Source: Thainema sp.
GTDB lineage: Bacteria; Cyanobacteriota; Cyanobacteriia; Phormidesmidales; Phormidesmidaceae
Length of the DNA: 64,000 bases
Assembly: GCA_052168235.1 (NCBI GenBank)
Contig: JBQLZK010000001.1
Coordinates: 295,791 to 359,790, forward strand
Direction of reading: 5' to 3'
Below, one piece after another: positions 7,349 through 64,000 of this stretch; position 1 is the first letter of the stretch, and the number at the start of each line of letters is the position of its first letter. The notes beneath the pieces were generated by a model. That model saw nothing but the letters and a program-made list of their open reading frames with translations. It was not told the origin of the DNA and ran no database searches. The translations under genes and the position numbers were made by a program.

Positions 7349-7369
7349 GATATTCCAACAAAATTTTGA

Positions 7370-7402
7370 AGAGGAGAGTGCGATCGCACTCTCCTCTTTT
7401 TT
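7370..7402 (+). terminator. Intrinsic terminator after purF, hairpin centred on HIP1
   Basis: AGAGGAGAGTGCGATCGCACTCTCCTCT followed by a T run. Confidence 0.7.
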
Positions 7403-7416
7403 CATGAGGCAAATAT

Positions 7417-7611
7417 TTAAGCAGGTTTACACTGTCCGGCCCGAATTAAACCAACGCGACGTGCGATCGCATCTCCTTGCGACTCAAACGGCCCCCAGGT
7501 TTTACCACGACGGCTCTCTTCAGGCGGCAACTGCACGGCAGGACAAATCTCACACTGTCCTGCTTCGGTTTGGACGATGTACCACTGATCAGAAGAATCG
7601 GCTGAAGTCAT
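7417..7611 (-). CDS. Small conserved cyanobacterial hypothetical protein (64 aa)
   Basis: WYIV..GQCEI..WGPF.SQGDAIARRVGLIRAGQCKP, a motif set I recognise from small cyanobacterial proteins. Confidence 0.7.
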   Translation of the reverse strand: MTSADSSDQWYIVQTEAGQCEICPAVQLPPEESRRGKTWGPFESQGDAIARRVGLIRAGQCKPA

Positions 7612-7813
7612 AATGTCGATGCCAAATAGGGTGCAGTAACGATTTGGGAGCGCGGCAAGTGCTGCTTGCACCCTCCCAAATCGTCGCTTTGCAGGACTAA
7701 CGATGGTTATCGCTATCATACGGCGTTAGCCAAATTGCGATTTGATGGTTAACCGTGCTGATCTTCTAAAATTGGGACAAGATCGATCTATCTCTTACCA
7801 TCAGAAAATCTCA

Positions 7814-8377
7814 ATGGTACAGTCTCCATCTAAACCCATCACGCTAGAGGAATTTCTGAAGCTGCCAGAAACTAAACCCGCCAGCGAATATATTGATGGG
7901 CAAGTTATCCAGAAACCCATGCCACAGGGAAAGCATAGTACAATCCAAACTGAATTTTCAACTACCGTCAATGCCGTGCTTAAGCCTCAACAAATTGCAC
8001 GAGCATTTTCAGAGTTGCGGTGTACCTTTGGTGGTCGCTCAACGGTTCCAGATGTGTCGGTATTTACGTGGCAAAGAATTCCGCGTGATGAAAACGGTGA
8101 AATTGCCAACATCTTCCCGATTGCTCCTGATTGGACAATCGAAATTTTGTCACCGGATCAAAGCCAGACTAAAGTAACTAAAAATATTCTGCATTGCCTC
8201 AATCATGGAACTCAAATGGGTTGGTTAATTGACCCGGATGAGCAAACCGTTTTTGTGTATCGTCCCAAACAGCAACCCGAAGTTTTTGATCAGCCAGAAC
8301 AGAGGCTTTCTGTACCTTCTTTCGCTAGTGAATTAAATCTGAGTATAGGTGTAATATTCGGCTGGTTATTAGAGTGA
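7814..8377 (+). CDS. Uma2 family (DUF820) PD-(D/E)xK endonuclease-like protein
   Basis: TLEEFLKLPETKPASEYIDG, PQGKHS, VPDVSVF, APDWTIEILSPDQS, GWLIDP. Confidence 0.9.
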   Translation: MVQSPSKPITLEEFLKLPETKPASEYIDGQVIQKPMPQGKHSTIQTEFSTTVNAVLKPQQIARAFSELRCTFGGRSTVPDVSVFTWQRIPRDENGEIANIFPIAPDWTIEILSPDQSQTKVTKNILHCLNHGTQMGWLIDPDEQTVFVYRPKQQPEVFDQPEQRLSVPSFASELNLSIGVIFGWLLE

Positions 8378-8426
8378 AGTGCCGAGCTCGACTATGCGTA
8401 TTTCGTTCTTCTAAAGAGAATCAAAT

Positions 8427-8903
8427 ATGAAATTTGAAATTGTAGAGATCAGCGTATTGAAGGTTTGCAAATTCCCAATTCGAAAACTTATTGGTGTTGC
8501 CGATCACTATTATCTTTCTGAAAATTAGGATTTTTATACCTCTTTAGGTTGGGGGCCAAGCGGACTTGAAGTAAAGGGATTAGTCAAAGTCACAGCGCAA
8601 GAACTGGAACGGGTAGAACAATTTATGCAAGCTGTAAAATATAGTATTACTGTTAATAACTGTGAGCACTTTGCTAACTACATTCTCTACGGCATTAACC
8701 TTTCGTCTCAGCAGCATACCTGGTGGAAAAGCTTGGGTGCGGAAGTTATTAGTCTCTTACAACCCGTACAAGGAGTAAGAGATAACTACAGCAGTTTTAT
8801 TGGTCAGCAAGCTGCGGAAATATTAAATGAAAATTTGAGACAAGCAAAAATTGAGCAAGCTAATCGGGAACGAACTGAGTTTTGGAAGTCTAGAGAAGAC
8901 TAA
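8427..8903 (+). pseudogene. LRAT-like / permuted NlpC-P60 (NC domain) gene with an in-frame TAG at 8526-8528
   Basis: One frame reads MKFEI..ADHYYLSEN*DFYTSLGWG..YSITVNNCEHFANY; His motif upstream and NCEHF downstream of the single stop. Confidence 0.7.
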
Positions 8904-8936
8904 TCAAACGGGGGAGGGAGAACTGATATTCTCATC

Positions 8937-9230
8937 ATGCGTATCATATCTCGCAGCACCTTACGCGACTTTTGGAAATCTCATCCAGATGCTGAGGGAG
9001 CTTTGAAAACCTGGTATTACGATGCGTCACATGCTGACTGGAAGAGCCCAACAGATGTCAAAGCTGTTTATGGTAGTGCTAGCATTATTGCGAATAACCG
9101 TGTTGTTTTTAATATTAAAGGAAATACCTATCGGCTAATTGTGGCGATCCGCTATGACATTGGCATAATCTTTATTCGATTTATTGGTACTCATGCTGAG
9201 TATGACAAGGTGGATGCAGAAACTATTTGA
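8937..9230 (+). CDS. higB: Type II toxin HigB
   Basis: MRIISRSTLRDFW..HPDAE..W, NRVVFNIKGNTYRLIV, FIRFIGTHAEYDK. Confidence 0.92.
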   Translation: MRIISRSTLRDFWKSHPDAEGALKTWYYDASHADWKSPTDVKAVYGSASIIANNRVVFNIKGNTYRLIVAIRYDIGIIFIRFIGTHAEYDKVDAETI

Positions 9231-9244
9231 GCTGAGGTTGAGAT

Positions 9245-9622
9245 ATGGAGATACATCCAATTAGAACCCAAACTGACTATCAAGAAGCTCTTCGAGAAAT
9301 TGAATTACTATTTGATGCAGTTCCAAACACATCTGAACACGATCGATTAGATGTATTGAGTACTTTAGTGGAAGCTTATGAGACAAAACACTTCCCAATT
9401 GATTTACCTGATCCAATTGAAGCGATTCATCATTACATGGATGTCCGAGGATGGTCTGATCGGGATTTGGAATCCTGCCTTGGAGGAAAAGTAGCGGTAT
9501 CAGAGATACTATCTCGTAAACAGCCTTTGACACTGGAAATAATTCGAAAGTTAAATCAGGAGTTAAAGATTCCGGCTGAGATCCTTATTCGGCCTTATGG
9601 ATTAACACAGATTTCTGCCTGA
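9245..9622 (+). CDS. higA: Type II antitoxin HigA (HTH)
   Basis: PIRTQTDYQEAL..LDVLSTLVEAYE..PDPIEAI..SEILSRKQPLTLEIIRKL; directly follows higB. Confidence 0.9.
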   Translation: MEIHPIRTQTDYQEALREIELLFDAVPNTSEHDRLDVLSTLVEAYETKHFPIDLPDPIEAIHHYMDVRGWSDRDLESCLGGKVAVSEILSRKQPLTLEIIRKLNQELKIPAEILIRPYGLTQISA

Positions 9623-9686
9623 AAACGCCTATGCTGTTAGTCTTTGAGAACCCATATGATGAGTACTCCAAAACAGTTAAATTCCT

Positions 9687-10742
9687 ATGAGAATTGCGAT
9701 CGCACCTTTCACGGTTCATAAACTTGTCCCGTTAACGATTAGCCGAGGCACCAGTGCCGGATCGACAAACCTGTGGGTACGGGTGATTCAGGATGAGATT
9801 GAAGGCTGGGGGGAAGCGTCACCGTTTTCGGTGGGGGACTATCGCCGCGATCCGGAGGAATTGCAGCAGGAATTAGAGGGAATTGCGCCGCTGCTAGAAC
9901 CATTTAGTCCGTTTGACTATCAGCAGATTGAGCGAGTGTTGCTGAATGAGCCGATTTCGTCGGCGACGCGGGCTGGCATTGATTTGGCGATTCAGGATTG
10001 GCTGGGCAAGCGAGTGGAGCTGCCGCTTTGGAAACTTTGGGGTTTTGATCGAGCCGCGATTACGCCCACGTCGGTCACGATTGGCATTAGCACGCCGGAA
10101 AAAGCGCAGGAGCGGTTAAAGCGTTGGCAGGAAGTTATCGATGTTCGATCTGTAAAGGTCAAACTCGGTAATCCAGAGGGGATTGAGGCCGATCAGGCGA
10201 TGCTGTTGGAGCTGCTGCCGCTGGTGCCTGCTGGGGCAAAGGTGAGCGTTGATGCCAATGGTGGCTGGAGTCTCAAATCTGCGATCGCAATGAGTCACTG
10301 GTTAGCGGAACAGGGTGTGACTTACATTGAGCAGCCATTGGATCGCGGTCAGGAAGTCGACTTGCCGAAGCTGTATGAAAAGTCGCCGCTGCCGCTGTTT
10401 GTCGATGAAAGCTGTTTCACGAGTCATGACATTCCGCTACTGCGCGATCGCGTACATGGCATTAACATCAAACTAATGAAATCCGGTGGGTTGACCGAAG
10501 CGCGACGGATGATTGCGACGGCTCGTGCCTGTGGTTTGCAGGTGATGTTTGGCTGTTATGGTGACAGTGCGATCGCAAATACGGCCTTGGCGCATCTCTC
10601 ACCGCTGGCGGATCATTTAGATTTAGATAGTCATCTGAATCTGAAAGACGATCCGTTTCAGGGAGCCGAGGTGACAAACGGCTGCCTGATTCCCACCGAC
10701 CGACCTGGACTAGGAGTGATCCAACATGCGTCTCAATCCTGA
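9687..10742 (+). CDS. Enolase-superfamily dipeptide epimerase / DgcA-like racemase
   Basis: LTISRGT, KVKLG, VDANGGW, YIEQP, FVDES, INIKLMKSGG, DLDSHL. Confidence 0.88.
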   Translation: MRIAIAPFTVHKLVPLTISRGTSAGSTNLWVRVIQDEIEGWGEASPFSVGDYRRDPEELQQELEGIAPLLEPFSPFDYQQIERVLLNEPISSATRAGIDLAIQDWLGKRVELPLWKLWGFDRAAITPTSVTIGISTPEKAQERLKRWQEVIDVRSVKVKLGNPEGIEADQAMLLELLPLVPAGAKVSVDANGGWSLKSAIAMSHWLAEQGVTYIEQPLDRGQEVDLPKLYEKSPLPLFVDESCFTSHDIPLLRDRVHGINIKLMKSGGLTEARRMIATARACGLQVMFGCYGDSAIANTALAHLSPLADHLDLDSHLNLKDDPFQGAEVTNGCLIPTDRPGLGVIQHASQS

Positions 10743-14993: not shown

Positions 14994-15016
14994 AATGAAG
15001 TATGTGTAGTGAAGTG

Positions 15017-15045
15017 GCCTAACGATGAAGTTGAGCTGCGGGGAA
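15017..15045 (-). mobile_element. Right half of a degenerate attC-like site
   Basis: Minus strand CCCCGCAGCTCAACTTCATC-GTTAGGC just before the cassette 1 gene; no clean left half found. Confidence 0.55.
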
Positions 15046-15184
15046 AATCGCTTAGGCTAATGGATTCAGTATAAACATCTTGAATTTGCAATTTAGGCTG
15101 TTTGAACTGCATGTATTATTTGGCAACACATCTTTATCTTAATTTCCTGATCCTGGTAGAGATGGTGTGGTTTCACTGTGAATG

Positions 15185-15345
15185 GGAGGAAAAGTGCGAT
15201 CGCATGTGAACAAGATTGAGGAAAAAGTGCGATTGTTCTGCGAAGCAAATGGGATTGCGGGGAAAGTGCGATCGCACTGTAAAAGTAATGGTGTTAGTTC
15301 TGCGATCGCACTGTAAACAGGATCGTGAAAAGAGTGCGATCGCTA
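15185..15345. repeat. Cluster of extended-HIP1 repeats (AAAGTGCGATCGCA type)
   Basis: Four perfect HIP1 sites (15196, 15268, 15302, 15336) plus a degenerate one within 160 bp, with shared flanks. Confidence 0.75.
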
Positions 15346-15373
15346 ATCAAAACACTCAACGAAGAGAACAGAG

Positions 15374-15766
15374 CTAAGGAATATAAATCCGATCTACACC
15401 CATGTAATTCTCAATATCAAATAAAATCTCGACTAATCAGCTCGCGCATCGTTCCCGATAAATCTGCTCATCGAGCCGCTCTTTATTGCCAATCGTTACA
15501 ACAGGCAGCGATTGTAGATTATTTTCTTCCCGGATTACTTGTTCTAGTGAATCATCTCCCTTCATATTACGATTTGCCGTCAGAATGATCATCTGATTGC
15601 TTTGAACCACCTGCCACACCAAGCGATCAGGACTATTTTCAAGTAAGCTGACTTCTTCAAATCCAACGAAGCGAATTGGCATCAGTTCAAGCCATCCTTC
15701 AGCCGCGATCGTCCCCCACAATAAAGCTGCTTGTCCTCTCAAGTTGTAATCAACCAGGAAATTCAT
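15374..15766 (-). pseudogene. DUF5615 PIN-like toxin with a premature TGA at 15437-15439
   Basis: MNFLVDYNL..SPDRLVW..ILTANR..RERCAS*LVEILFDIENYMGVDRIYIP*; family-like C-terminus continues in frame after the stop. Confidence 0.75.
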
Positions 15767-16137
15767 ACCTTGGATTCAAGCCGATCTTTCCAAGCTTGAA
15801 GTTTTGCACGGATAGCCTCATGTTCTAGGTTTGGAGGCATTGCAGCAAGACGGGCAAAATGTTCTCGATTACGTGCTTCCCAGAATTGTCGGTTCTCTTC
15901 TGCAATTTGTAAAACCTGTTGATATTCGGCTTCGGCTTCAGCCTGATGAGCCTCAATGTAACAGAGAGCAGCATCGACTTGAGCATCTGTGAGACAGAGC
16001 TTTTCACGAATGAGTTTCGCAGGATAGCCAGCCGTGAAATAATCCATCACATCATACAGAGTAATGCGGGTGCCTGCGATGGTTAGTCCTCGCTCTGTCC
16101 GTACAATATTGGCTTGTTCATTCGGTGCTGAAGCCAT
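15763..16137 (-). CDS. DUF433 family antitoxin
   Basis: IVRTERGLTIAGTRITLYDVMDY..LTDAQVDAALCYI; ATGA overlap with the PIN-like gene. Confidence 0.85.
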   Translation of the reverse strand: MASAPNEQANIVRTERGLTIAGTRITLYDVMDYFTAGYPAKLIREKLCLTDAQVDAALCYIEAHQAEAEAEYQQVLQIAEENRQFWEARNREHFARLAAMPPNLEHEAIRAKLQAWKDRLESKV

Positions 16138-16313
16138 AGCCCAATTTTTGTAAAAGCTGCTTTCAGCATATCGCGTTGTAAATGGGATGTGAGAGAAGTG
16201 CGATCGCATTCATGACCTCAATCACTGGACACCATAACGCTTTGCAAATCGCCATTGCTTCAGTGCCGAAAGCCTTGCTCTGTAATAAATCGGGTCAATT
16301 GCGCCAGTTTTGG

Positions 16314-22834: not shown

Positions 22835-22856
22835 ACGCAATTAACTAAACCAAAAC

Positions 22857-22910
22857 GTCTAAATCCAAAATCCAAAGTCTAAAATCCAAAACCAAAACCA
22901 AACAACCCAA
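22857..22910. repeat. STRR-type heptamer tandem repeat (AAAATCC-like)
   Basis: TCTAAATCCAAAATCCAAAGTCTAAAATCCAAAACCAAAACC. Confidence 0.7.
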
Positions 22911-31432: not shown

Positions 31433-31536
31433 ATTTCTATCCTTGCAGATTGTGAACACTCTACAAATGCAGGGCTTGAGGACGAGCGCAAAATGATAGA
31501 TTGATCCTTTGGAAGACACCTCAAAGGGAATCATTC

Positions 31537-33474
31537 ATGTCAGCAGATGAGGCGATGCAACCTGAGTCAACGGCAGATGAGTTGGAAAATGTGGCTCCGC
31601 CTGATGATTTAGAAGATGCAGCAGAACAGCAAGATTCAGATGCCGATCCGGATTCAGCATCTGAGCCTGATCGCGTGTCAGAAGATGTTGCAGAGCCTCT
31701 GGTAGAGGATGTCTCAGAGGAAGATGCTGACTTAGCAGAAGATATTACGGCGGCTGACGCAGAAGCGGATTTAGAAGAGTCGGCAGAGAATATTGCTGTA
31801 GTGTCAGGAGACGTTTCAGGCGCAGACACCTCAGACATGTCCGATACATCAACCCCAATTGATACTTTTATTGATACTTCTGATGAGGTTTTAGACTATG
31901 CCGCTGAATCTGAGGGCGTAAATTATGAGCCTGAACCAACCAATCCAGACCAGGACATCTCAGATCAAGTAACCGCTACAGACATATCAGATGTATTGAC
32001 TACCGAAGCTGATACCGACGCAAATCCAGAAGCTCCAGAAACCTCAGAAGTTTCAGAAGTTTCAGACGCTTCAGATGCCCCAGAAGTATCCTATGAATCG
32101 CTAGCTGAGTCGTCAGCCACGCTGGCTGAAAATGAAGCGGCGGGTGCTGAAGAAGTCACTGAGGCAGCGGAAACGGCAGATGCATCGGCAGCAAAATCAG
32201 GTACAGAATCTGACACCGCTGCTCAAGATTCAGAACCAGAAAACATAGCGGCACCACCCGTCACGCCGTCGATTCCGGTTCAAATTTTGGAAACTTTGCA
32301 GACGATTTTGGGCGTTGTCCTACCGATTCTGCGCGCTGTCACTGTATTGGTACTTAAAATCACCATTCGAGTGCTGCAATTTGTGGTGGATTTATTGGAT
32401 GAACCTAAATCCGAGCCTTCCACCGCTAGCCAGTCTCCAACTAACGCCGCCAATATGCCAAGCGATGCACAGGATTTGACCTGGAATCAAGAAAGTCGGA
32501 CAGGTGCGATCGCATATTCAATGGCCGATTTGACTAATGCTGAAACGGATGACGAGGACGCTGAAGTCAAGCGGGTGCGGTTCACGATTGATGATATCTA
32601 CCAAGACGATGGGTCTCTGCGACCCTTGCCGGAGCGGCTGAAGGAAATTTGGCAAGACCTGATTCGAGTCATGCGAGCGCCCCTGCCCACCGCCATGAAT
32701 CAGCAAATTCCAGACAAGGTCTTTTCAGTCATCCTGGCAGCTGTACTGGCAATTGTAATTTGGAATCTGGCGGCGTTTATCCTGCCGTCTAAGTCCTCAC
32801 CGCGCAAGGTTCAAGTTACGAAACCTCAGCCGACTGAAGTCGGCCAACCGTCTGCGACCGAGCAGCCTAGAGCAGAGGAGCCTGCAACCGATACGACCAC
32901 TGAACCAACTTCGGCCCCCGATATTGCCCAACCGGCTCCTACTCCTACCCCAACTGTCCAACCCACTCCAGCGCCTACAGCGACCCCGCAGCTTGAGCTT
33001 GAGCCGCGAGATACGGTCATTGAGGCTATTCAACAGCAGGTGTCAGAAGTGACGCAGCGCTATGCCGATAACCTGATTCAATCGGTACAGGCCAACTTCC
33101 GCGACGGACGGTTAACGGTGCGGGTGAGCGACGATTGGTATCGCCTGGAGGCCAGTCGGCAAGATCAAGTGGTAACTGATTTATTGAAACGCACGAAAAA
33201 CCTAGATTTTGGCAAGCTGGAACTGCTCGATAGCCAGGACAACCGCGTCGCCCGCAACCCGATTGTGGGCAACAAAGTGCTGATTCTACAGCGCGATCGC
33301 ACTGACGTAACTGGCCCCATCGAAACCCCAATCAACCCCCCAGCCCCTGCAACCGAGCAAGCAGACCAGGTCGATCAAGTCGATCATTCTGCAGCCAATC
33401 ATCCTGAAGTCAATGCGGCGGAATCCCAGAATTCGACAGATGCGATTCCCGCAGCATCCACAGACAAGGCTTAA
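31537..33474 (+). CDS. Hypothetical membrane protein with a long acidic N-terminus and a conserved-looking C-terminal domain
   Basis: Acidic disordered region, TM segments, Pro/Thr linker, IEAIQQQV..YADNLIQSVQANF..WY.L..VARNPIVG. Confidence 0.75.
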   Translation: MSADEAMQPESTADELENVAPPDDLEDAAEQQDSDADPDSASEPDRVSEDVAEPLVEDVSEEDADLAEDITAADAEADLEESAENIAVVSGDVSGADTSDMSDTSTPIDTFIDTSDEVLDYAAESEGVNYEPEPTNPDQDISDQVTATDISDVLTTEADTDANPEAPETSEVSEVSDASDAPEVSYESLAESSATLAENEAAGAEEVTEAAETADASAAKSGTESDTAAQDSEPENIAAPPVTPSIPVQILETLQTILGVVLPILRAVTVLVLKITIRVLQFVVDLLDEPKSEPSTASQSPTNAANMPSDAQDLTWNQESRTGAIAYSMADLTNAETDDEDAEVKRVRFTIDDIYQDDGSLRPLPERLKEIWQDLIRVMRAPLPTAMNQQIPDKVFSVILAAVLAIVIWNLAAFILPSKSSPRKVQVTKPQPTEVGQPSATEQPRAEEPATDTTTEPTSAPDIAQPAPTPTPTVQPTPAPTATPQLELEPRDTVIEAIQQQVSEVTQRYADNLIQSVQANFRDGRLTVRVSDDWYRLEASRQDQVVTDLLKRTKNLDFGKLELLDSQDNRVARNPIVGNKVLILQRDRTDVTGPIETPINPPAPATEQADQVDQVDHSAANHPEVNAAESQNSTDAIPAASTDKA

Positions 33475-35146: not shown

Positions 35147-35244
35147 TAGTGTCTCCCTGATTCAATGCGTCATTCGGAAGCCAGTTCAAAACAAGCTTCA
35201 ATATGGTTAACAATACGATACTTTTCAAAAAGTTTCGATCATCA

Positions 35245-35312
35245 CTCATCCAGCCATCCACTCATCCACTCATCCACCCATTCACCCATCTACTCATCTC
35301 CCCATCCACCCT
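35245..35312. repeat. 8-bp short tandem repeat (CYCATCCA-like)
   Basis: CATCCAGCCATCCACTCATCCACTCATCCACCCATTCACCCATCTACTCATC. Confidence 0.75.
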
Positions 35313-35326
35313 GTCACTCAACACTG

Positions 35327-43848: not shown

Positions 43849-43920
43849 CTGGGGTGCTAGGATTCGAACCTAGGAATGGCGGGACCAAAACCCGCTGCCT
43901 TACCACTTGGCGACACCCCA
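43849..43920 (-). tRNA. trnQ: tRNA-Gln(TTG)
   Basis: Minus strand TGGGGTGTCGCCAAGTGGTAAGGCAGCGGGTTTTGGTCCCGCCATTCCTAGGTTCGAATCCTAGCACCCCAG folds as a cloverleaf; anticodon TTG; CCA not encoded. Confidence 0.96.
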
Positions 43921-45923: not shown

Positions 45924-46053
45924 GAATCGACCCGTGCTGCATGAGCATAGAACAAGCAGCACGGGTCGATTCGGGGTGATAGTAGTTTGATTTGGATCTG
46001 GAGAAAGAGCTGGATCTGGAGCTGCGATCGCAGCTCCAGATCCAAATCAAACT
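45924..46053. repeat. Two adjacent palindromes downstream of ychF
   Basis: GAATCGACCCGTGCTGC..GCAGCACGGGTCGATTC, and a 34-bp perfect palindrome at 46011-46044 centred on HIP1. Confidence 0.7.
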
Positions 46054-57797: not shown

Positions 57798-58907
57798 ATG
57801 ACCCAGGCCAAAGAAGTACTCGAAACCATCGCAAAACCTCAAAACGAACTTGAAGTTTTATTAGATGATGGTAGCGATAGTGGCGAACAGCCTCAAGTTG
57901 AGGATGGTAAGGGTTCGAAAGGACGTGCAACTCGACGTCGGACTCAAACAAAAAAGAAGCACTACACTGAAGATTCAATTCGTCTTTATCTGCAAGAGAT
58001 TGGTCGAATTCGGCTTCTCAGAGCTGACGAAGAGATTGAACTCGCACGCAAAATCGCAGATTTGCTTGAGCTGGAACGTATTCGAGAACAGCTCATGGAA
58101 GATTTGGATCGAGAACCAAATGACGCAGAGTGGGCTGAAGCTGTTGACATGCCGCTCCATGATTTCCGCCGTCGCCTCTACATTGGGCGTCGGGCTAAGG
58201 ATAAGATGGTGCAGTCTAACCTCCGGCTAGTTGTTTCGATCGCGAAAAAGTACATGAATCGCGGCCTGTCTTTCCAAGATTTGATTCAGGAAGGCAGTCT
58301 AGGTTTGATTCGGGCGGCTGAAAAGTTCGACCACGAAAAGGGCTATAAGTTCTCAACCTACGCAACCTGGTGGATTCGTCAGGCAATTACCCGTGCGATC
58401 GCAGACCAGTCTCGTACGATTCGTCTGCCGGTTCACCTGTACGAAACGATTTCTCGGATTAAGAAAACCACCAAGCTGCTTTCTCAGGAATTGGGCCGCA
58501 AGCCGACTGAGGAAGAAATCGCTGACCGGATGGAGATGACCATTGAGAAGCTGCGGTTTATTGCAAAGTCAGCTCAACTGCCAATCTCGCTGGAAACCCC
58601 CATCGGTAAAGAAGAAGATTCTCGTCTGGGTGACTTCATTGAATCCGATGGTGAAACACCTGAGGATCAAGTCTCCAAGAGCCTGTTGCGGGAAGATTTG
58701 GAAGGGGTTCTGGGTACCCTCAGCCCGCGTGAGCGCGATGTATTGCGTTTGCGCTACGGTTTGGACGATGGCCGCATGAAGACACTGGAAGAAATCGGCC
58801 AGATCTTCAACGTGACCCGTGAGCGAATTCGCCAAATTGAAGCTAAGGCACTGCGGAAACTGCGTCATCCGAATCGCAACAGCGTGCTGAAAGAATACAT
58901 TCGCTAA
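57798..58907 (+). CDS. sigA: Principal RNA polymerase sigma factor SigA/RpoD
   Basis: [75 protein letters not shown]. Confidence 0.97.
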
Positions 58908-58947
58908 CAGCTACAGGTAACTACACAATCAGTTACACAATTTCCAG

Positions 58948-58982
58948 AAGGGTTTGGCTCCGGTCAAGCCCTTTTGTTTTTG
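58948..58982 (+). terminator. Intrinsic terminator of sigA
   Basis: AAGGGTTTGGC..GTCAAGCCCTT followed by TTGTTTTT. Confidence 0.7.
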
Positions 58983-58994
58983 ATAATTCTTTAA

Positions 58995-59095
58995 TACAGC
59001 GCTATGCGTTCAAGTAAAACTGATACTTTTAGGAAAGCCACGCGGAGCGCAGCTTTCCTAAAAATGTAAGTCCTAACCTGCGGGCGTAGTGCCAC
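58995..59095. repeat. MITE-like palindromic repeat, family A-related copy 4
   Basis: TACAGCGCTATGCG..hairpin TTTTAGGAAAGC/GCTTTCCTAAAA..GTCCTAAC; reverse-complement relative of 35819-35920. Confidence 0.65.
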
Positions 59096-59104
59096 GCTAG
59101 ACGT

Positions 59105-59491
59105 ATGAACCTACAGCAAATCCATCACGTTGCCATCATTTGCTCCGACTATGCCACGTCCAAACGCTTTTACACCGAAATTTTAGGAATGCCGATTATT
59201 CGCGAAACCTATCGCCAAGACCGCGATTCATACAAACTCGATCTCAAAGTCGGCGATCAGGCTCAGATTGAACTCTTCTCATTTCCACAGCCACCAGAGC
59301 GACCATCCCGACCCGAAGCCTGTGGACTGCGCCATTTATCCTTTGCAGTGGAAAAGCTAGAAGCTGCGATCGCAGAATTAGAAGCGCATGGCGTTGCGGT
59401 TGAACCGATGCGGCTGGATGAGCTAACCAATAAGCGCTTTACGTTCTTTAAAGATCCGGATGATTTGCCGCTAGAACTTTATGAGCAGTAA
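59105..59491 (+). CDS. VOC/glyoxalase family protein (YaeR-like)
   Basis: IHHVAIICSDY..SKRFY, SYKLDL, IELFSFP, PEACGLRHL, FFKDPDDLPLELYE. Confidence 0.92.
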   Translation: MNLQQIHHVAIICSDYATSKRFYTEILGMPIIRETYRQDRDSYKLDLKVGDQAQIELFSFPQPPERPSRPEACGLRHLSFAVEKLEAAIAELEAHGVAVEPMRLDELTNKRFTFFKDPDDLPLELYEQ

Positions 59492-59504
59492 TGTTTCAGT
59501 TTCC

Positions 59505-59816
59505 TTAACTAGGACGGGGAAATCGGCGCACCTGATACTCCTGCGATTCCACCATGTCGTAATCAAAACCAAGGGCTTGATCAAACTCCTGGCCAACTTG
59601 TTTAAGGTCTTTTGCTGAAATTGACTTCCACTCTTCTCGACTATGCCAGCGGATCATCATCACGACTTCCTGTGGCCGATCCGGCTGAATCCAGACCTCT
59701 TTCGTCAGGAAACCAGGGCACTGTTCAAGAAAAGGCGTCCAGATTTCTAGATCGCACTGAATAAACCGCTCTCGCTTGTCTTCAGGAACTCGAAACTTTA
59801 ACCACTCAATAACCAT
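59505..59816 (-). CDS. Cyanobacterial ABM-like protein (TIGR03792-type)
   Basis: MVIEWLKFRV..FIQCD.EIWT..GFLTKEVW..IRW.SREEWK. Confidence 0.82.
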   Translation of the reverse strand: MVIEWLKFRVPEDKRERFIQCDLEIWTPFLEQCPGFLTKEVWIQPDRPQEVVMMIRWHSREEWKSISAKDLKQVGQEFDQALGFDYDMVESQEYQVRRFPRPS

Positions 59817-59866
59817 TCAAAAATCAACTTCTCTACTGGGCAACTCTCTATCTAGGCTAATGGCGT

Positions 59867-61642
59867 TTACCGACGTTTGACCAGCTTAAGAATGGTTTTA
59901 ACCAGACGGTTAACTTCAAGTGGTTTTGGCAGATGCGCTTGGAATCCGACGGCTAAAGCTCGGGTTTGATTCGCTTGACCGACATGGGACGTAAGTGCGA
60001 TCGCAGGAATGTGGCGAGTTTGAGGATCGTTACGAATGGCCTGCATCAGCATATAGCCATCCATTTCCGGCATGCCGATATCACTAATCACAATATCTGG
60101 ATCGGATTGCCGCAGGGCATCAAGCGCATTCGTTGCTGACGATACCGTTGTGACAGTGGCACCATACATTTCGAGTGTAAAGGTAATCAACTCACGGCTG
60201 TCATCGTCATCTTCAATGACAAATACATGGATATTGGTCAGTGCGTAATCACCAGCCACAATCCTATCGGATTCCGGTGTCGGAACAAGATCAGCAACCA
60301 GTGGTAATTGAACGGTAAATGTTGAGCCTTGACCGTCACCTGGGCTTGCCGCTTCGATCGTGCCGCCATGTAAATCGACGATCTGTTTTGCGATCGCTAA
60401 TCCTAAACCCAGGCCGCCAAAGCTTTTGGTCGTCGTGCTATCTCCCTGCTGAAAGCGATCAAAGACATATGGCAGAAACTCAGCCGCGATGCCTTTTCCC
60501 GTATCGCTAACGGTGATTTGAGCATAGGTAGATGAACGGATAGATGGGTTGGTTGATTGGCGGATGGATGGGGACTTTCCCACTTCCTCACTCTCCCACG
60601 CTTCCGCTCTCCTACTCATATCTCCACTAACCTCTTCTAATCTCACCTCTACCCGGCCTCCATCTGGCGTAAACTTTACCGCATTCGATAGTAAGTTCCA
60701 AAAGACTTGTTTCAGCCGGGTCGCATCTCCTAAAACCTGTGCTGGAGTCTGATTTGCTTCAATTTGAATTACAATCCCTTTTGTTTCTGCGGCTGTTTGG
60801 ACAGTGGACATCGCGTCCTTAATAATCGGGATCAGGGGAACTGGCCCCATGTTGAGGATGAGCTTATTTTCGAGAATCCGAGAAATATCCAACAAGTCAT
60901 CAATCATTTGAGCTTGTGACTTGGCGTTCCGCTCAATGGTCTCTAGCGCCCGTTGAGTCGTCTTCTCATCAAACTGGCGCGACAGCAGCAGTTTCGACCA
61001 GCCTAAAATGGGATTCAGTGGCGATCGCAGTTCATGGGACAAAACAGCTAAAAACTGATCCTTAAGCTGGTTAGCTCGTTCTGCAACTTCCTTAGCAGCT
61101 TGGGTTTCAATTCGGAGTTCACGTTCGCGGCGTTCACTGATAATTTTTTCGGTTGTTTCATTGACGGCAATAAAAATGCCGCCAACGGTGCCAGGACTTT
61201 CCCAAATGGGTGTGTAAGAAAAGGTAAAGTAGCCTTCTTCCGGCTGGCCATATCGATCTAACATCAAAAGCTGATCTTCCGACCATGTGGCTGTACCCGT
61301 TTCTACCACTCGATCTAGCATCGGCCCCACCAGATGCCACACTTCCTGCCAGCAATCTTGCCCCCGTTGCCCTAGTGCGGTTGGATGCTTATCGCCTGCG
61401 ATCGCAATATAGGCATCGTTATAAAACTGGACGTACTCTCTACCCCACAAAATCTGCATGGGAAACTTAGACAGCAGCAAAATTTGCAGCGCGACTTTGA
61501 GGCTTTGAGGCCAGGCATCAATTGAACCAATTGCGGTGGATGTCCAATCAAATGCTTGAATTCGGGCACCCATCTCTCCACCATGCGCAAAGAGATGTGC
61601 TAACAGATCGGTTTCGGGCAGCTTAATTGGGCCATCTTCCAT
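59867..61642 (-). CDS. Hybrid histidine kinase (PAS-like, HisKA, HATPase, REC)
   Basis: GGEMGARIQAFDW..WPQSL sensor, LSHELRSPL, NLLSNAVKFT, GGLGLGL, IEDD..ISDIGMP..PKP. Confidence 0.92.
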   Translation of the reverse strand: MEDGPIKLPETDLLAHLFAHGGEMGARIQAFDWTSTAIGSIDAWPQSLKVALQILLLSKFPMQILWGREYVQFYNDAYIAIAGDKHPTALGQRGQDCWQEVWHLVGPMLDRVVETGTATWSEDQLLMLDRYGQPEEGYFTFSYTPIWESPGTVGGIFIAVNETTEKIISERRERELRIETQAAKEVAERANQLKDQFLAVLSHELRSPLNPILGWSKLLLSRQFDEKTTQRALETIERNAKSQAQMIDDLLDISRILENKLILNMGPVPLIPIIKDAMSTVQTAAETKGIVIQIEANQTPAQVLGDATRLKQVFWNLLSNAVKFTPDGGRVEVRLEEVSGDMSRRAEAWESEEVGKSPSIRQSTNPSIRSSTYAQITVSDTGKGIAAEFLPYVFDRFQQGDSTTTKSFGGLGLGLAIAKQIVDLHGGTIEAASPGDGQGSTFTVQLPLVADLVPTPESDRIVAGDYALTNIHVFVIEDDDDSRELITFTLEMYGATVTTVSSATNALDALRQSDPDIVISDIGMPEMDGYMLMQAIRNDPQTRHIPAIALTSHVGQANQTRALAVGFQAHLPKPLEVNRLVKTILKLVKRR

Positions 61643-61747
61643 CAGTATGAGACCAAATAGGGTTTCCGATGCGATCGCATCATCTTTATCTATGGTATCG
61701 TCACGATTTTGCTATTTTCCTCAATTCAACTGAATCTGTCTAATCTG

Positions 61748-61985
61748 CAAAACTGCGATCGCACTTTCACTTCTCTACCAAAACCGCGATCGCACTTCTA
61801 ACCCTCTATCGCACTTTCACTGAATGCCATCGCAGTTACCCGCAATCACCGAGATTTTTCGCAAATTCCAGGCTTGCAGCTAGAAAATTGGGCTGAATAG
61901 GTCTATGGCGATTGGGAAGTGCGATCGCGCTTTCACTTCTTTACCAAAACTGAGATCGCACTTTCTCTAGGTGCGATCTCAGTAC
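61748..61985. repeat. HIP1-based composite repeat: unit A, unit B, then a second unit A
   Basis: A = GCGATCGCACTTTCACTTCTYTACCAAAACYGCGATCGCAC at 61755 and 61921; B = GATCGCACTTCTAACCCTCTATCGCACTTTCACTGAATG..CGCAGTTACCCG.. at 61788-61900. Confidence 0.85.
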
Positions 61986-62046
61986 CTTGCCCTTTCTAGG
62001 ATTGCTACAATTTGGTGCATAGGTTCTATGAAACAGGACTCACAAT

Positions 62047-62301
62047 ATGGCAATCGTCATTACCCTTAGCCCTGAATTAGAGGCGCTGTTGCTTGATAAA
62101 GCTGCTCAGCGAGGAGAAGACGTTAATTCTGTTGCTTCTGAGTTATTAGCGAGTGCTTTAGAGTGGGAAACTCAGGACTCAGCAGAGGCTGTTAAAGGCA
62201 TTCAGCAGGGGCTGGATGCCTTTGAAGCTGGTCGATTTCGTTCGTTTGACGAATTTGCACAAGAACAGCGTCATAAGTACGATTTGCCAGCAGACACATG
62301 A
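62047..62301 (+). CDS. Putative antitoxin (ParD/CopG-like)
   Basis: ITLSPELEALL..AAQRG..GIQQGLDAFEAGRFRSFDEF; ATGA overlap with the toxin. Confidence 0.8.
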   Translation: MAIVITLSPELEALLLDKAAQRGEDVNSVASELLASALEWETQDSAEAVKGIQQGLDAFEAGRFRSFDEFAQEQRHKYDLPADT

Positions 62302-62639
62302 AATATCGGATTGAGATTTCGAGCGTAGCAGAAGCTGAGGCAGATCGAGCTTTCCTGCGATTGTCCCAAATCGCATCTCCAGCAACGGCTAAGCATTGGT
62401 ACGCGGGCTTGATACAGGCTATTGAATCGTTGTCTCAGATGCCTAAACGCTGTCCACTAGCGAGAGAAAATTCGTATTTCAGCCAAGAGATCCGTCAGCT
62501 AGTTTATGGCAAAGGACGGAGTTCATACCGTGTTCTTTTCACGATTCTTGAAGAACAGGAAAGAGCAACGGTTCGTATTTTGCATATTCGTCATGGTTCT
62601 CAGCAGGCGCTTGGCGAAAGTTTGGATGAGGACGAATGA
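62298..62639 (+). CDS. RelE/ParE family toxin
   Basis: MKYRIEISSVAEAE..W..AIESLSQMPKRCPLARE..IRQL.YG..YRVLFTI..VRILHIRH. Confidence 0.88.
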   Translation: MKYRIEISSVAEAEADRAFLRLSQIASPATAKHWYAGLIQAIESLSQMPKRCPLARENSYFSQEIRQLVYGKGRSSYRVLFTILEEQERATVRILHIRHGSQQALGESLDEDE

Positions 62640-62679
62640 TCGCACTTTCACTTCTTTACCAAAACTGCGATCGCACTTT
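62638..62679. repeat. HIP1-based repeat unit A, copy between TA modules
   Basis: GATCGCACTTTCACTTCTTTACCAAAACTGCGATCGCACTTT, overlapping the toxin stop codon. Confidence 0.85.
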
Positions 62680-62688
62680 GGCTATCCG

Positions 62689-62973
62689 TTAGCGTTGGGT
62701 TACTTCACCTAATGCTTCCTGTAGCACTTCTTCGCTGACACCATGACGTTTTAGGCTATCGATTAGCGCAGTAACCGTATCACTTTCTAGACGTTCTAAA
62801 TCGGCACGCAGTCCTTGTCCGATGTACGCACGGGCTAAGGGTTGATAACCTGAAAAGCCAAGTAGGGGTGCAAGTCGCTTGAGATCTTCAATCACATCCT
62901 CGGGCATCCGAATGGTGACTGTCGTCATAGGCCGATTTTTATCGAGTCGTTTTTTGAATGCTTCAATTTTCAT
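62689..62973 (-). CDS. Ribbon-helix-helix antitoxin (BrnA/CopG-like)
   Basis: RPMTTVTIRMPEDVIEDLKRLA..GYQPLARAYI; overlaps the brnT stop. Confidence 0.8.
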   Translation of the reverse strand: MKIEAFKKRLDKNRPMTTVTIRMPEDVIEDLKRLAPLLGFSGYQPLARAYIGQGLRADLERLESDTVTALIDSLKRHGVSEEVLQEALGEVTQR

Positions 62974-63259
62974 AGAGGTTACGCTCCTGACGAGTCGCTT
63001 TGCGAGCTGAGATAATGCGAATGATGTCGTTTTTGCGCTCAATGTAGACGACGTATAGCAGGTTCCATTGTCGGTCTAATCCAATAACAGCATCTCGTGC
63101 TTCATTATTACGACTGGCATCAACAACAATGAGAAACGGATCGAAAAAGGCTTCCGCAGCTTGCTGAAACGTGACACCATCATGATTTACGGGATTGATC
63201 CTGGCTTTTTCGTCGTCCCAAACGAAAGTGATGTCATTGAGAACGAAATGCACGTCCAT
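62963..63259 (-). CDS. brnT: BrnT family toxin
   Basis: FVWDDEKARIN..HDGVTFQQAAEAFFDP..EAR..IG..IRIISARKAT.QER..Y. Confidence 0.88.
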   Translation of the reverse strand: MDVHFVLNDITFVWDDEKARINPVNHDGVTFQQAAEAFFDPFLIVVDASRNNEARDAVIGLDRQWNLLYVVYIERKNDIIRIISARKATRQERNLYEN

Positions 63260-63323
63260 GTTTTTAGTGTAATGAGAACGTATTTACAACGTCAATACAC
63301 TATATCGTTAGTAGATGTTGAGA

Positions 63324-63433
63324 GATCGCACTTCTAACCCTCTATCGCACTTTCACTGAATGCGATCGCAGTTACCCGTAACCACCAAGATTTTTCCAAT
63401 TTCAGGTTGACAACTAAAAGACTGGGTTGAGTA
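63324..63433. repeat. HIP1-based repeat unit B, second copy
   Basis: About 110-bp direct repeat of 61788-61900, near-identical over the first 55 bp or so. Confidence 0.85.
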
Positions 63434-63482
63434 ATGATTGTGGCTGCTAGAATGACGGCACATCTGTCACCATTGCATTAGT

Positions 63483-63812
63483 ATGGCTGTTGTGTCGTCC
63501 TTGGCGAAAACGTTGAACTTCCACATCCTTTTAGAACCTACGGAAACAGGGCAAATTTCAGCGTCAATTGCTGAGTTGGTAAATTGTCGTGTAGAAGCGA
63601 ATACTCGCCAGGAAGCACTGGTCAACATTCAAAAATTGGTTCAGCAAAGATTAAGTCAGGTTGAAGTACTGCCGCTAGATATTGCGCTAGAAGAACCCAG
63701 TCAAGAGAATCCTTGGACTGAGTTCATCGGTATGTTTGAAGAGGATGAGGATTTTGCAGAAATTTCGGCACAAATGCGGACAGAGCGTGAACAGGATACG
63801 GATTTGGTGTGA
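63483..63812 (+). CDS. HicB-like antitoxin
   Basis: FHILLE..ISASIAEL..VEANTRQEAL..ENPWTEFIGMFEEDEDFAEI. Confidence 0.75.
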   Translation: MAVVSSLAKTLNFHILLEPTETGQISASIAELVNCRVEANTRQEALVNIQKLVQQRLSQVEVLPLDIALEEPSQENPWTEFIGMFEEDEDFAEISAQMRTEREQDTDLV

Positions 63813-63985
63813 GTCGCTGGATTTTAGATACGGATCACGTTTCGCTGTTGCTGGCAGGGCATCCACAGGTTAGTCGTCGGGTAGCAGCGGTTGGTGCAGA
63901 TGTTGCTATCACAATTGTGACGGTTCAAGAGCTTTTTAACGGTTGGGTTGGGAGCACGTCATCCGCTGAGGAGATGAAAATATAA
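63809..63985 (+). pseudogene. VapC/PIN toxin truncated after about 48 codons
   Basis: GTG start in a GTGA overlap; WILDTDHVSL..VAITIVTVQELFNGWVG, then unrelated-looking sequence and TAA. Confidence 0.7.
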
Positions 63986-64000
63986 TGGAGTGAGTGCCCT

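Follow-up and report, generated by a model that had tools for sequence, protein, structure and literature searches.

Toxin-antitoxin operons between HIP1-built direct repeats in a Thainema sp. chromosome: a possible case of recombination at HIP1 sites

Results

Gene content of the toxin-antitoxin islet

At the right end of a 64-kb stretch of the Thainema sp. genome (assembly GCA_052168235.1, contig JBQLZK010000001.1, positions 295,791 to 359,790; referred to as the window, in whose numbering all coordinates are given), a small chromosomal islet of three unrelated type II toxin-antitoxin (TA) operons adjoins a gene for a hybrid histidine kinase (59867-61642, minus strand). The operons are embedded in spacer DNA that is a mosaic of short units, here termed A and B, which start and end at sites of the HIP1 type. 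HIP1 (GCGATCGC) is an 8-bp palindrome, of which the window contains 92 copies, as compared to 1.5 expected. From left to right, the elements follow each other as A1, B1, A2, the ParD-like/ParE operon, A3, the BrnT/BrnA operon on the opposite strand, B2, and the HicB-like/VapC operon. This order and the inverted position of BrnT/BrnA had already been recognized in the initial annotation of this DNA, which proposed that TA modules are gained, lost or inverted in a cassette-like array by recombination at extended HIP1 sites.

Each of the three operons is a pair of small genes that adjoin or overlap, with one member from a recognized toxin family. The antitoxin partners are assigned on the basis of their position, of the gene overlaps (4, 11 and 4 nt), and of weak matches; a comparison of the three antitoxins with PDB sequences gave nothing useful. 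The first operon lies on the plus strand and begins with an antitoxin candidate of 84 aa that resembles ParD or, more generally, ribbon-helix-helix (RHH) proteins (62047-62301; NCBIfam RelB-like with E 0.042, Atlas leads ParD/RHH/Arc at 0.88-0.89). It overlaps by 4 nt with the gene of an intact ParE-family toxin of 113 aa (62298-62639; Pfam PF05016, E 5.8e-8). This ParE is of full length, as eleven relatives chosen among 120 listed have 110-116 aa and are 74-86% identical. Its cluster at 90% identity has a single member, which indicates that the protein collection contains few close relatives, and those encoded on plasmids do not exceed 42% identity. Together with 85 nt of upstream DNA, the two genes form a segment of 676 nt between A2 and A3, and the TGA stop codon of the ParE gene lies within the left edge of A3.

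The second operon is encoded on the minus strand. The BrnT toxin of 98 aa (62963-63259; Pfam PF04365, E 4.4e-23) covers positions 1-77 of the 77 profile positions and is followed, with an overlap of 11 nt, by a BrnA-like antitoxin of 94 aa (62689-62973), which is identified by its position downstream of BrnT and has Pfam matches to CopG_antitoxin (E 0.037) and BrnA (E 0.059). The left junction repeat is reached 10 nt beyond the stop codon of the BrnA-like gene, and the DNA between the start of the BrnT gene and the right junction has a length of 64 nt. The third operon, again on the plus strand, is composed of a HicB-family-like antitoxin candidate of 109 aa (63483-63812; automatic cluster names, Atlas 0.93) and, overlapping by 4 nt, a VapC (PIN) toxin gene (63809-63985) with 326 homologues. 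While ParE is of full length and BrnT is complete with respect to its profile, VapC is a fragment: 47 codons are identical to those of an intact relative of 142 aa, the sequence is unrelated from position 63950 onwards, and a stop codon follows 11 codons later at 63983. As the identity ends at codon 47, the third toxin gene appears to be interrupted by DNA that runs past the end of the window. The last 51 nt (63950-64000) have no match in the window or in plasmids, the latter having been compared with the final 56 nt, and may represent the edge of an insertion that extends past the window, such as an insertion sequence (IS) or another module. The three modules of the initial annotation are indeed three operons, but the toxin gene of the last one is not intact. 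Each operon is compact, has its own promoter and is bounded within 0-12 nt of a stop codon; in a scan for promoters and terminators, such sites were no more common than in shuffled sequences (3 promoters versus 3.3).

Repeat units A and B

Unit A is present in three copies on the plus strand, namely A1 at 61744-61803 (core 61757-61795), A2 at 61910-61969 (core 61923-61961) and A3 at 62625-62684 (core 62638-62676), with spacings of 166 and 715 nt. In comparison to the 39-mer core of A3, the cores of A1, A2 and A3 have 2, 2 and 0 mismatches, respectively, whereas 100 shuffles produced 0 matches, and the 60-nt copies are 72-83% alike. The unit consists of 21 nt that are enclosed by two copies of GCGATCGCAC, which results in a period of 31 nt that Tandem Repeats Finder (TRF) also reports for 61748-61808. 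The two HIP1 or near-HIP1 sites that had been described at this distance are exact at 61755 and 61786 in A1, while A2 has an exact left site at 61921 and a right site with one mismatch at 61952. In A3, the right HIP1 lies at 62667, and the left site retains only GATCGC, with two HIP1 mismatches whose altered bases form the stop codon of the ParE gene.

Unit B occurs twice, also on the plus strand. B1 (61788-61905) directly abuts A1 and is not followed by any open reading frame (ORF), and B2 (63324-63443) starts inside a one-mismatch HIP1 at 63322. The two copies are 95% identical over 73 nt (61788-61860 versus 63324-63396); the first 40 nt are perfectly identical, and thereafter the similarity decays, with one 2-nt indel, up to about 61905 and 63443. 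The total length of some 118-120 nt is close to the 110 bp estimated initially. B1 is bounded by a pair of 18-nt inverted sequences with 94% identity (61781-61798 and 61916-61933), and B2 has no right-hand inverted repeat. A profile search of the window detected no further full copy of either unit, and the next matches (E 0.005-0.007) were driven by HIP1. Alignments, shuffles and profile search hence agree with the previous description of three A and two B copies that are built on HIP1. Neither a match in Rfam (58000-64000, E up to 1) nor a candidate protein among ORFs spanning unit A was found, the latter comparison with the protein collection being weak evidence.

Self-pairing of HIP1 prevails in the single-strand folds of both units. 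The exception lies upstream of the ParD-like gene, where the right end of A2 and an inverted copy of this end form a perfect inverted repeat of 13 bp (61949-61985; 9-nt loop). The RNA fold of 61910-61990 has an energy of -36.6 kcal/mol (z -6.5), and from its sequence the inverted repeat could possibly serve as an operator. It was also observed that the DNA to the left of A1 (61715-61743) resembles the tail of B1 that is located to the left of A2 (61881-61909), with AATT..CTGAAT..GTCTA in common. A higher-order repeat of about 166 nt, in which a B tail is joined to A and of which a degenerate additional copy lies upstream of A1, is hinted at by this resemblance.

Junctions at HIP1-type sites

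All edges of the repeats as well as the junctions of the BrnT/BrnA (BrnTA) segment fall on HIP1-type sites, in agreement with the view that these sites are the breakpoints. In all three A copies, the similarity sets in within the left HIP1-type site and stops immediately past the right one, and the left edge of unit B likewise lies in such a site. Exact or one-mismatch HIP1 sites, extended by 2 nt on both sides, make up 2.5% of the window, and the probability that three independent boundaries all fall within them is about 1.6e-5, where only few boundaries are counted as independent because the A copies share ancestry.

The most informative comparison is that of the two places where A meets B. 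At the A1|B1 junction, there is a single copy of the 10-bp sequence GATCGCACTT (61788-61797), whereas two copies (62669-62678 and 63324-63333) are found between A3 and B2, and these enclose a segment of 645 nt (62679-63323) that contains nothing but BrnA, BrnT and the 64 nt of upstream DNA. A and B are thus contiguous once and split once by BrnTA at the shared GATCGCACTT, exactly as had been noticed. A single copy in the absence of the segment and two copies in its presence are what characterizes recombination between short direct repeats. The initial annotation interpreted this arrangement as an insertion of BrnTA, and the 10-bp repeats that flank the segment fit this idea, but an insertion cannot be distinguished from a deletion on these grounds. 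Deletions or illegitimate recombination at HIP1 are recognized by breakpoints in HIP1 direct repeats and by the single copy left at the junction, and A1|B1 in comparison to A3...B2 displays both. The ParD-like/ParE (ParDE) operon is similarly flanked by two direct copies of unit A (A2 and A3), which are 715 nt apart.

At 11 of the 12 junction sites of this locus and of a second one described below, HIP1 carries ACTT on one flank. In the entire window, ACTT (or AAGT on the other side) flanks about 13 of the 92 HIP1 sites, with fewer than one expected if flanks were random, and due to this excess the genome seems to have an extended HIP1 variant. Six of the ACTT-flanked sites lie outside TA loci, and extended sites of the GCGATCGCACTT type are not confined to these loci.

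Features that would indicate a specialized mobile element were also searched for. Integron cassettes are recognized by attC motifs at their ends (RYYYAAC ... GTTRRRY, 50-160 nt apart), and 61600-64000 contains no such core pair. No inverted similarity exists between the termini of the BrnTA segment or between those of the ParDE segment, as 325 and 398 of 500 shuffles, respectively, reach the observed scores. No recombinase, integrase or transposase is encoded by the 59 ORFs that were scanned or by the hybrid kinase gene, which together represent the 61.7 kb upstream of the array; the statement that no integrase is located nearby therefore holds for the upstream side, to which this verification applies. 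The repeats that flank the modules are direct, not inverse as in dif/Xer modules, and their sole common core is the 8-bp HIP1 palindrome with the ACTT flank. With flanking repeats in direct orientation, there is no evidence for the proposed inversion of modules by recombination.

A second locus at 15 kb

A comparable arrangement exists at a distant position in the window (14994-16313). A gene for a DUF433 protein (15763-16209, minus strand; Pfam DUF433, E 1.6e-7) overlaps by 4 nt with a gene for a PIN-like, DUF5615-type protein (15437-15766, minus strand; DUF5615, E 0.0024). Just 3' of this TA-like operon, 15175-15343 (minus strand) is occupied by a tandem array of four to five units, which have a length of some 33-39 nt and all end with HIP1 or near-HIP1 (TRF period 34 nt). 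One more HIP1-terminated unit (16173-16208, minus strand) lies on the other side of the operon and is 81-88% identical to 15240-15276, so that the operon is positioned between HIP1-terminated units that are 864 nt apart. As the start of the DUF433 ORF reads through this outer unit, the true start is probably a Met codon around 16137.

A scan for direct repeats of at least 24 nt that are at most 2 kb apart yielded 13 families in the window, and only three of them, i.e. A, B and the 15-kb units, are intergenic and bracket genes. The others are intragenic or simple tandem repeats, except for one 24-nt, HIP1-containing pair (D13) with a distance of 1,950 nt, which is taken for a chance match. Of the 45 intergenic regions, only two contain two or more HIP1 sites, and each of these lies next to a TA operon, which corresponds to 2 of the 7 TA-adjacent regions versus 0 of the 38 others (hypergeometric p 21/990 = 0.021). 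The five TA operons of the window (3057 nt) themselves contain no HIP1, with 4.1 copies expected (p 0.016), and the G+C content of TA genes is 0.40-0.47, as compared to 0.504 (50.4%) for the window. HIP1-free TA genes with a low G+C content fit acquired DNA. Due to the second locus, the association of TA operons with HIP1-built units is better supported than could be known from the initial annotation. A motif composed of ATCGCRC, 0-3 nt and TTYYMC has 10 of its 12 matches at TA loci, but little weight can be given to it because it was built from these loci after they had been viewed.

Discussion

Recombination at HIP1 microhomologies as an explanation

How may self-contained operons have come to lie precisely between HIP1-delimited units? 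We propose that recombination by the host at HIP1 microhomologies inserts or deletes TA operons within short tandem arrays that are punctuated by HIP1, an explanation that builds on sequence comparison and to which we assign an even chance of being correct. The single repeat copy in the absence of the segment, the two copies in its presence, and the homologous units that flank the operons all point to recombination between short direct repeats, which could have proceeded in either direction. The replication and recombination machinery of the host would act on HIP1-based homologies of 10-39 nt, and circular or transformed DNA might integrate at such positions in a Campbell-style event. The reverse route would be a deletion or an unequal exchange between chromosome copies. 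Whole operons would then enter or leave at the unit boundaries, and the units themselves would be duplicated. A dedicated recombinase or a specific cassette site would not be required. Whereas the anatomy of the locus and its breakpoints can be read directly from the DNA, we infer the direction of the events, the enzymes involved and any present-day mobility from this anatomy.

A HIP1-bounded deletion is known from a metallothionein locus. The function of HIP1 itself has been unsettled for about thirty years, and its links to recombination, transformation and horizontal transfer derive mostly from laboratory constructs or statistics. Site-specific plasmid recombination, excision between cloned copies and a chromosomal inversion have been connected with it (PMC4390886, PMC5861425, PMC9239245), and these sources cite Robinson et al. 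1997 for the excision between HIP1 copies and Akiyama et al. 1998 for plasmid recombination in Synechococcus PCC 7002. More recently, it has been described that a homologous HIP1 site in a homology arm improves integration up to 7-fold (bioRxiv 10.1101/2024.09.10.611283), and a 2026 paper proposes that HIP1 is an adaptation for horizontal transfer. The TA islet shares with HIP1-associated recombination the breakpoints in HIP1 or HIP1-derived direct repeats, the one copy that is left where the segment is absent, and the lack of an element-encoded recombinase. It differs in that whole TA operons in tandem arrays of HIP1-terminated units are concerned, at two loci, and that these are known from sequence alone. 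As illegitimate or site-specific recombination at HIP1 has already been published, the arrangement is more likely a by-product of this known property than the product of an undescribed dedicated system, and the latter suggestion of the initial annotation is not supported. A report of TA operons between HIP1-built repeats was not found in a literature search with little coverage of subscription journals.

Several observations weigh against recombination at HIP1 as the explanation. A degenerate pattern for A plus B has 6 chance matches and no cyanobacterial match across 185,579 species genomes, a collection that lacks the source species. A pair homologous to HicB-like/VapC (47% and 63% identity) that adjoins parAB on Tolypothrix plasmids has no HIP1 repeats at its edges, and 50 kb of such a plasmid contain 20 HIP1 sites, none of which are paired within 60 nt and none of which lie near a RelE/XRE pair, although the lower HIP1 density makes this plasmid a poor test. 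Within the window, the HigBA operon (8937-9622) has no HIP1-built flanking repeats. The units at 15 kb and A/B were considered as one family, since their similarity has a z of about 8 against plain shuffles, but 98 of 1000 shuffles reach it when the extended HIP1 is fixed; as the similarity is then not significant, a single family for both loci is not claimed. The sample comprises two loci in one 64-kb window, and the edges of the A copies are not independent owing to the common origin of these copies. Finally, the contrast between the first 40 nt of unit B, which are identical, and the diverged remainder could mean that a functional element is under selection, and not that a recombination scar has been preserved.

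Alternatives

What alternatives exist for recombination at HIP1 microhomologies? A and B could be small dispersed repeats that occur genome-wide in dispensable spacer DNA, for example of the type of miniature inverted-repeat transposable elements (MITE), repetitive extragenic palindromes (REP), small dispersed repeats (SDR) or HIP1 minisatellites, and their adjacency to TA genes would then be incidental. The inverted pair around B1 is indeed MITE-like, related HIP1-terminated units are found 46 kb away, and GCGATCGCACTT-type sites also exist elsewhere in the window, but B2 lacks the right-hand inverted repeat, the other 62 kb of the window contain no additional full copy, the 38 intergenic regions not adjoining TA operons have no such arrays, and neither the 185,579 species genomes nor plasmids (megablast and blastn of the locus and of A1-B1-A2) gave a match. 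The bacterial interspersed mosaic elements (BIMEs) of enterobacteria and the corresponding neisserial elements (NIMEs) are spacer mosaics of short segments that are delimited by an abundant palindromic unit and dispersed over the genome. Palindrome-delimited short segments in varying combinations are a common feature with the islet, in which, however, the units occur at TA loci only, within 64 kb. A closer likeness exists to SDR5 repeats, which in Nostocaceae have been described as inserted within HIP1 (Elhai et al. 2008, as cited in PMC5861425 and PMC4390886), because the 21-nt segment of unit A stands between two HIP1-containing 10-mers as if it had been inserted or duplicated at HIP1. This likeness is one of described position, unit A has only three local copies, and according to PMC5861425, SDR-like repeats have not been reported outside Nostocaceae. 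In sum of these points, we consider a dispersed family unlikely. The repeats could also be regulatory DNA, i.e. promoter-upstream elements or operators, which arose by plain local segmental duplication and were kept by selection, with the HIP1 at their edges simply reflecting its abundance. HicB-like/VapC is immediately preceded by B2, A2 precedes ParD-like/ParE, the 13-bp inverted repeat (61949-61985) has the appearance of an operator, and the perfectly conserved start of B would be explained as well. Such a role is nevertheless difficult to reconcile with A3, which is flanked by the 3' ends of both ParE and BrnA and is thus in no promoter position, or with B1, which has no gene to regulate. 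Moreover, three unrelated antitoxin families would not share operators, the promoter scan did not exceed the shuffles, and it is improbable that all edges coincide with HIP1 by chance, so that regulatory DNA appears quite improbable as a general explanation.

A further possibility is a dedicated cassette system, in which a recombinase encoded elsewhere by the host would recognize the extended HIP1 site (GCGATCGCACTT type). In such a cyanobacterial module-exchange system, this enzyme would capture, excise and shuffle self-contained TA operons, perhaps together with further small genes for defence, in a manner similar to integron cassettes or Xer-dependent dif modules. The modules are indeed compact, with boundaries close to their stop codons, and the ACTT flank recurs at both loci. 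Chromosomal integron cassette arrays contain compact modules between repeats, with TA pairs among them. The islet differs from these by the absence of attC-type sites and of an integrase in the upstream 61.7 kb, by the own promoters of the operons, and by the one module on the opposite strand. According to PMC13141974, TA pairs are the commonest cargo of dif (pdif) modules on Acinetobacter plasmids, these small modules are sometimes empty, to which the gene-less B1 could correspond, and they depend on short sites and on a recombinase that is encoded apart. In addition, Acinetobacter accounts for 529 of the 710 plasmid records with a BrnT relative. The dif modules are, however, plasmid-borne, with 28-bp XerC/XerD sites in alternating inverse orientation (PMC13141974), whereas the repeats described here are chromosomal, direct and unequal (10, 39 and 120 nt), and are built on an 8-bp palindrome, so that no single defined site can be recognized. 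The window also contains 92 HIP1 copies without associated cassettes, no recombinase was identified upstream, and no evidence of mobility of any kind was obtained. A dedicated module-exchange system is therefore regarded as very doubtful. If it nevertheless existed, it would be a chromosomal counterpart of the Xer-dependent dif modules and would provide a concrete function for HIP1. A CRISPR array or a repeat RNA of a type III TA system was rejected in view of the irregular repeat spacings (166, 715 and 1536 nt) and the lack of an Rfam family, and so was the insertion of a MITE or transposon, as terminal inverted repeats are absent from the BrnTA and ParDE segments and a 10-bp direct repeat flanks BrnTA.

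The value of the locus for the proposed recombination at HIP1 microhomologies lies in its natural junctions. Three segments of the size of a gene pair are found at two sites exactly between HIP1-delimited units, and for one of them the A1|B1 junction would constitute an internal "empty site". If this pattern holds genome-wide or across strains, with breakpoints inside GATCGCAC sites, a gain and loss of accessory genes that is mediated by HIP1 becomes directly testable. If the pattern fails elsewhere, the locus would be a TA islet of the ordinary kind, in which spacer DNA has been duplicated locally.

Other features of the window

The window is ordinary cyanobacterial chromosome, and its housekeeping genes include purL and purF as well as genes for cytochrome c assembly, GAPDH and a sigma factor. 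Its one tRNA gene (43849-43920) is distant from the TA array. The HigBA operon belongs to a stretch of 2.2 kb (7464-9695) without HIP1 and with low G+C content (0.38 in the spacers), which harbors a Uma2-family gene, a 92-aa LRAT-like fragment, HigB (E 2.6e-33) and a HigA-like gene, and which is probably acquired DNA. Two long perfect palindromes are centered on HIP1. One of them (7368-7400) directly follows purF and is succeeded by a T run, and the other (46008-46040) lies between convergent genes near ychF; at both positions, HIP1 appears to be built into terminator-like hairpins. A 657-aa ORF (31501-33474) has no Pfam match at E 0.001. Short tandem repeats are present in intergenic DNA at 35240-35320 (period 8 nt, 8.6 copies) and 22847-22902 (period 7 nt, 6.3 copies), and these recall the short tandemly repeated sequences of filamentous cyanobacteria.

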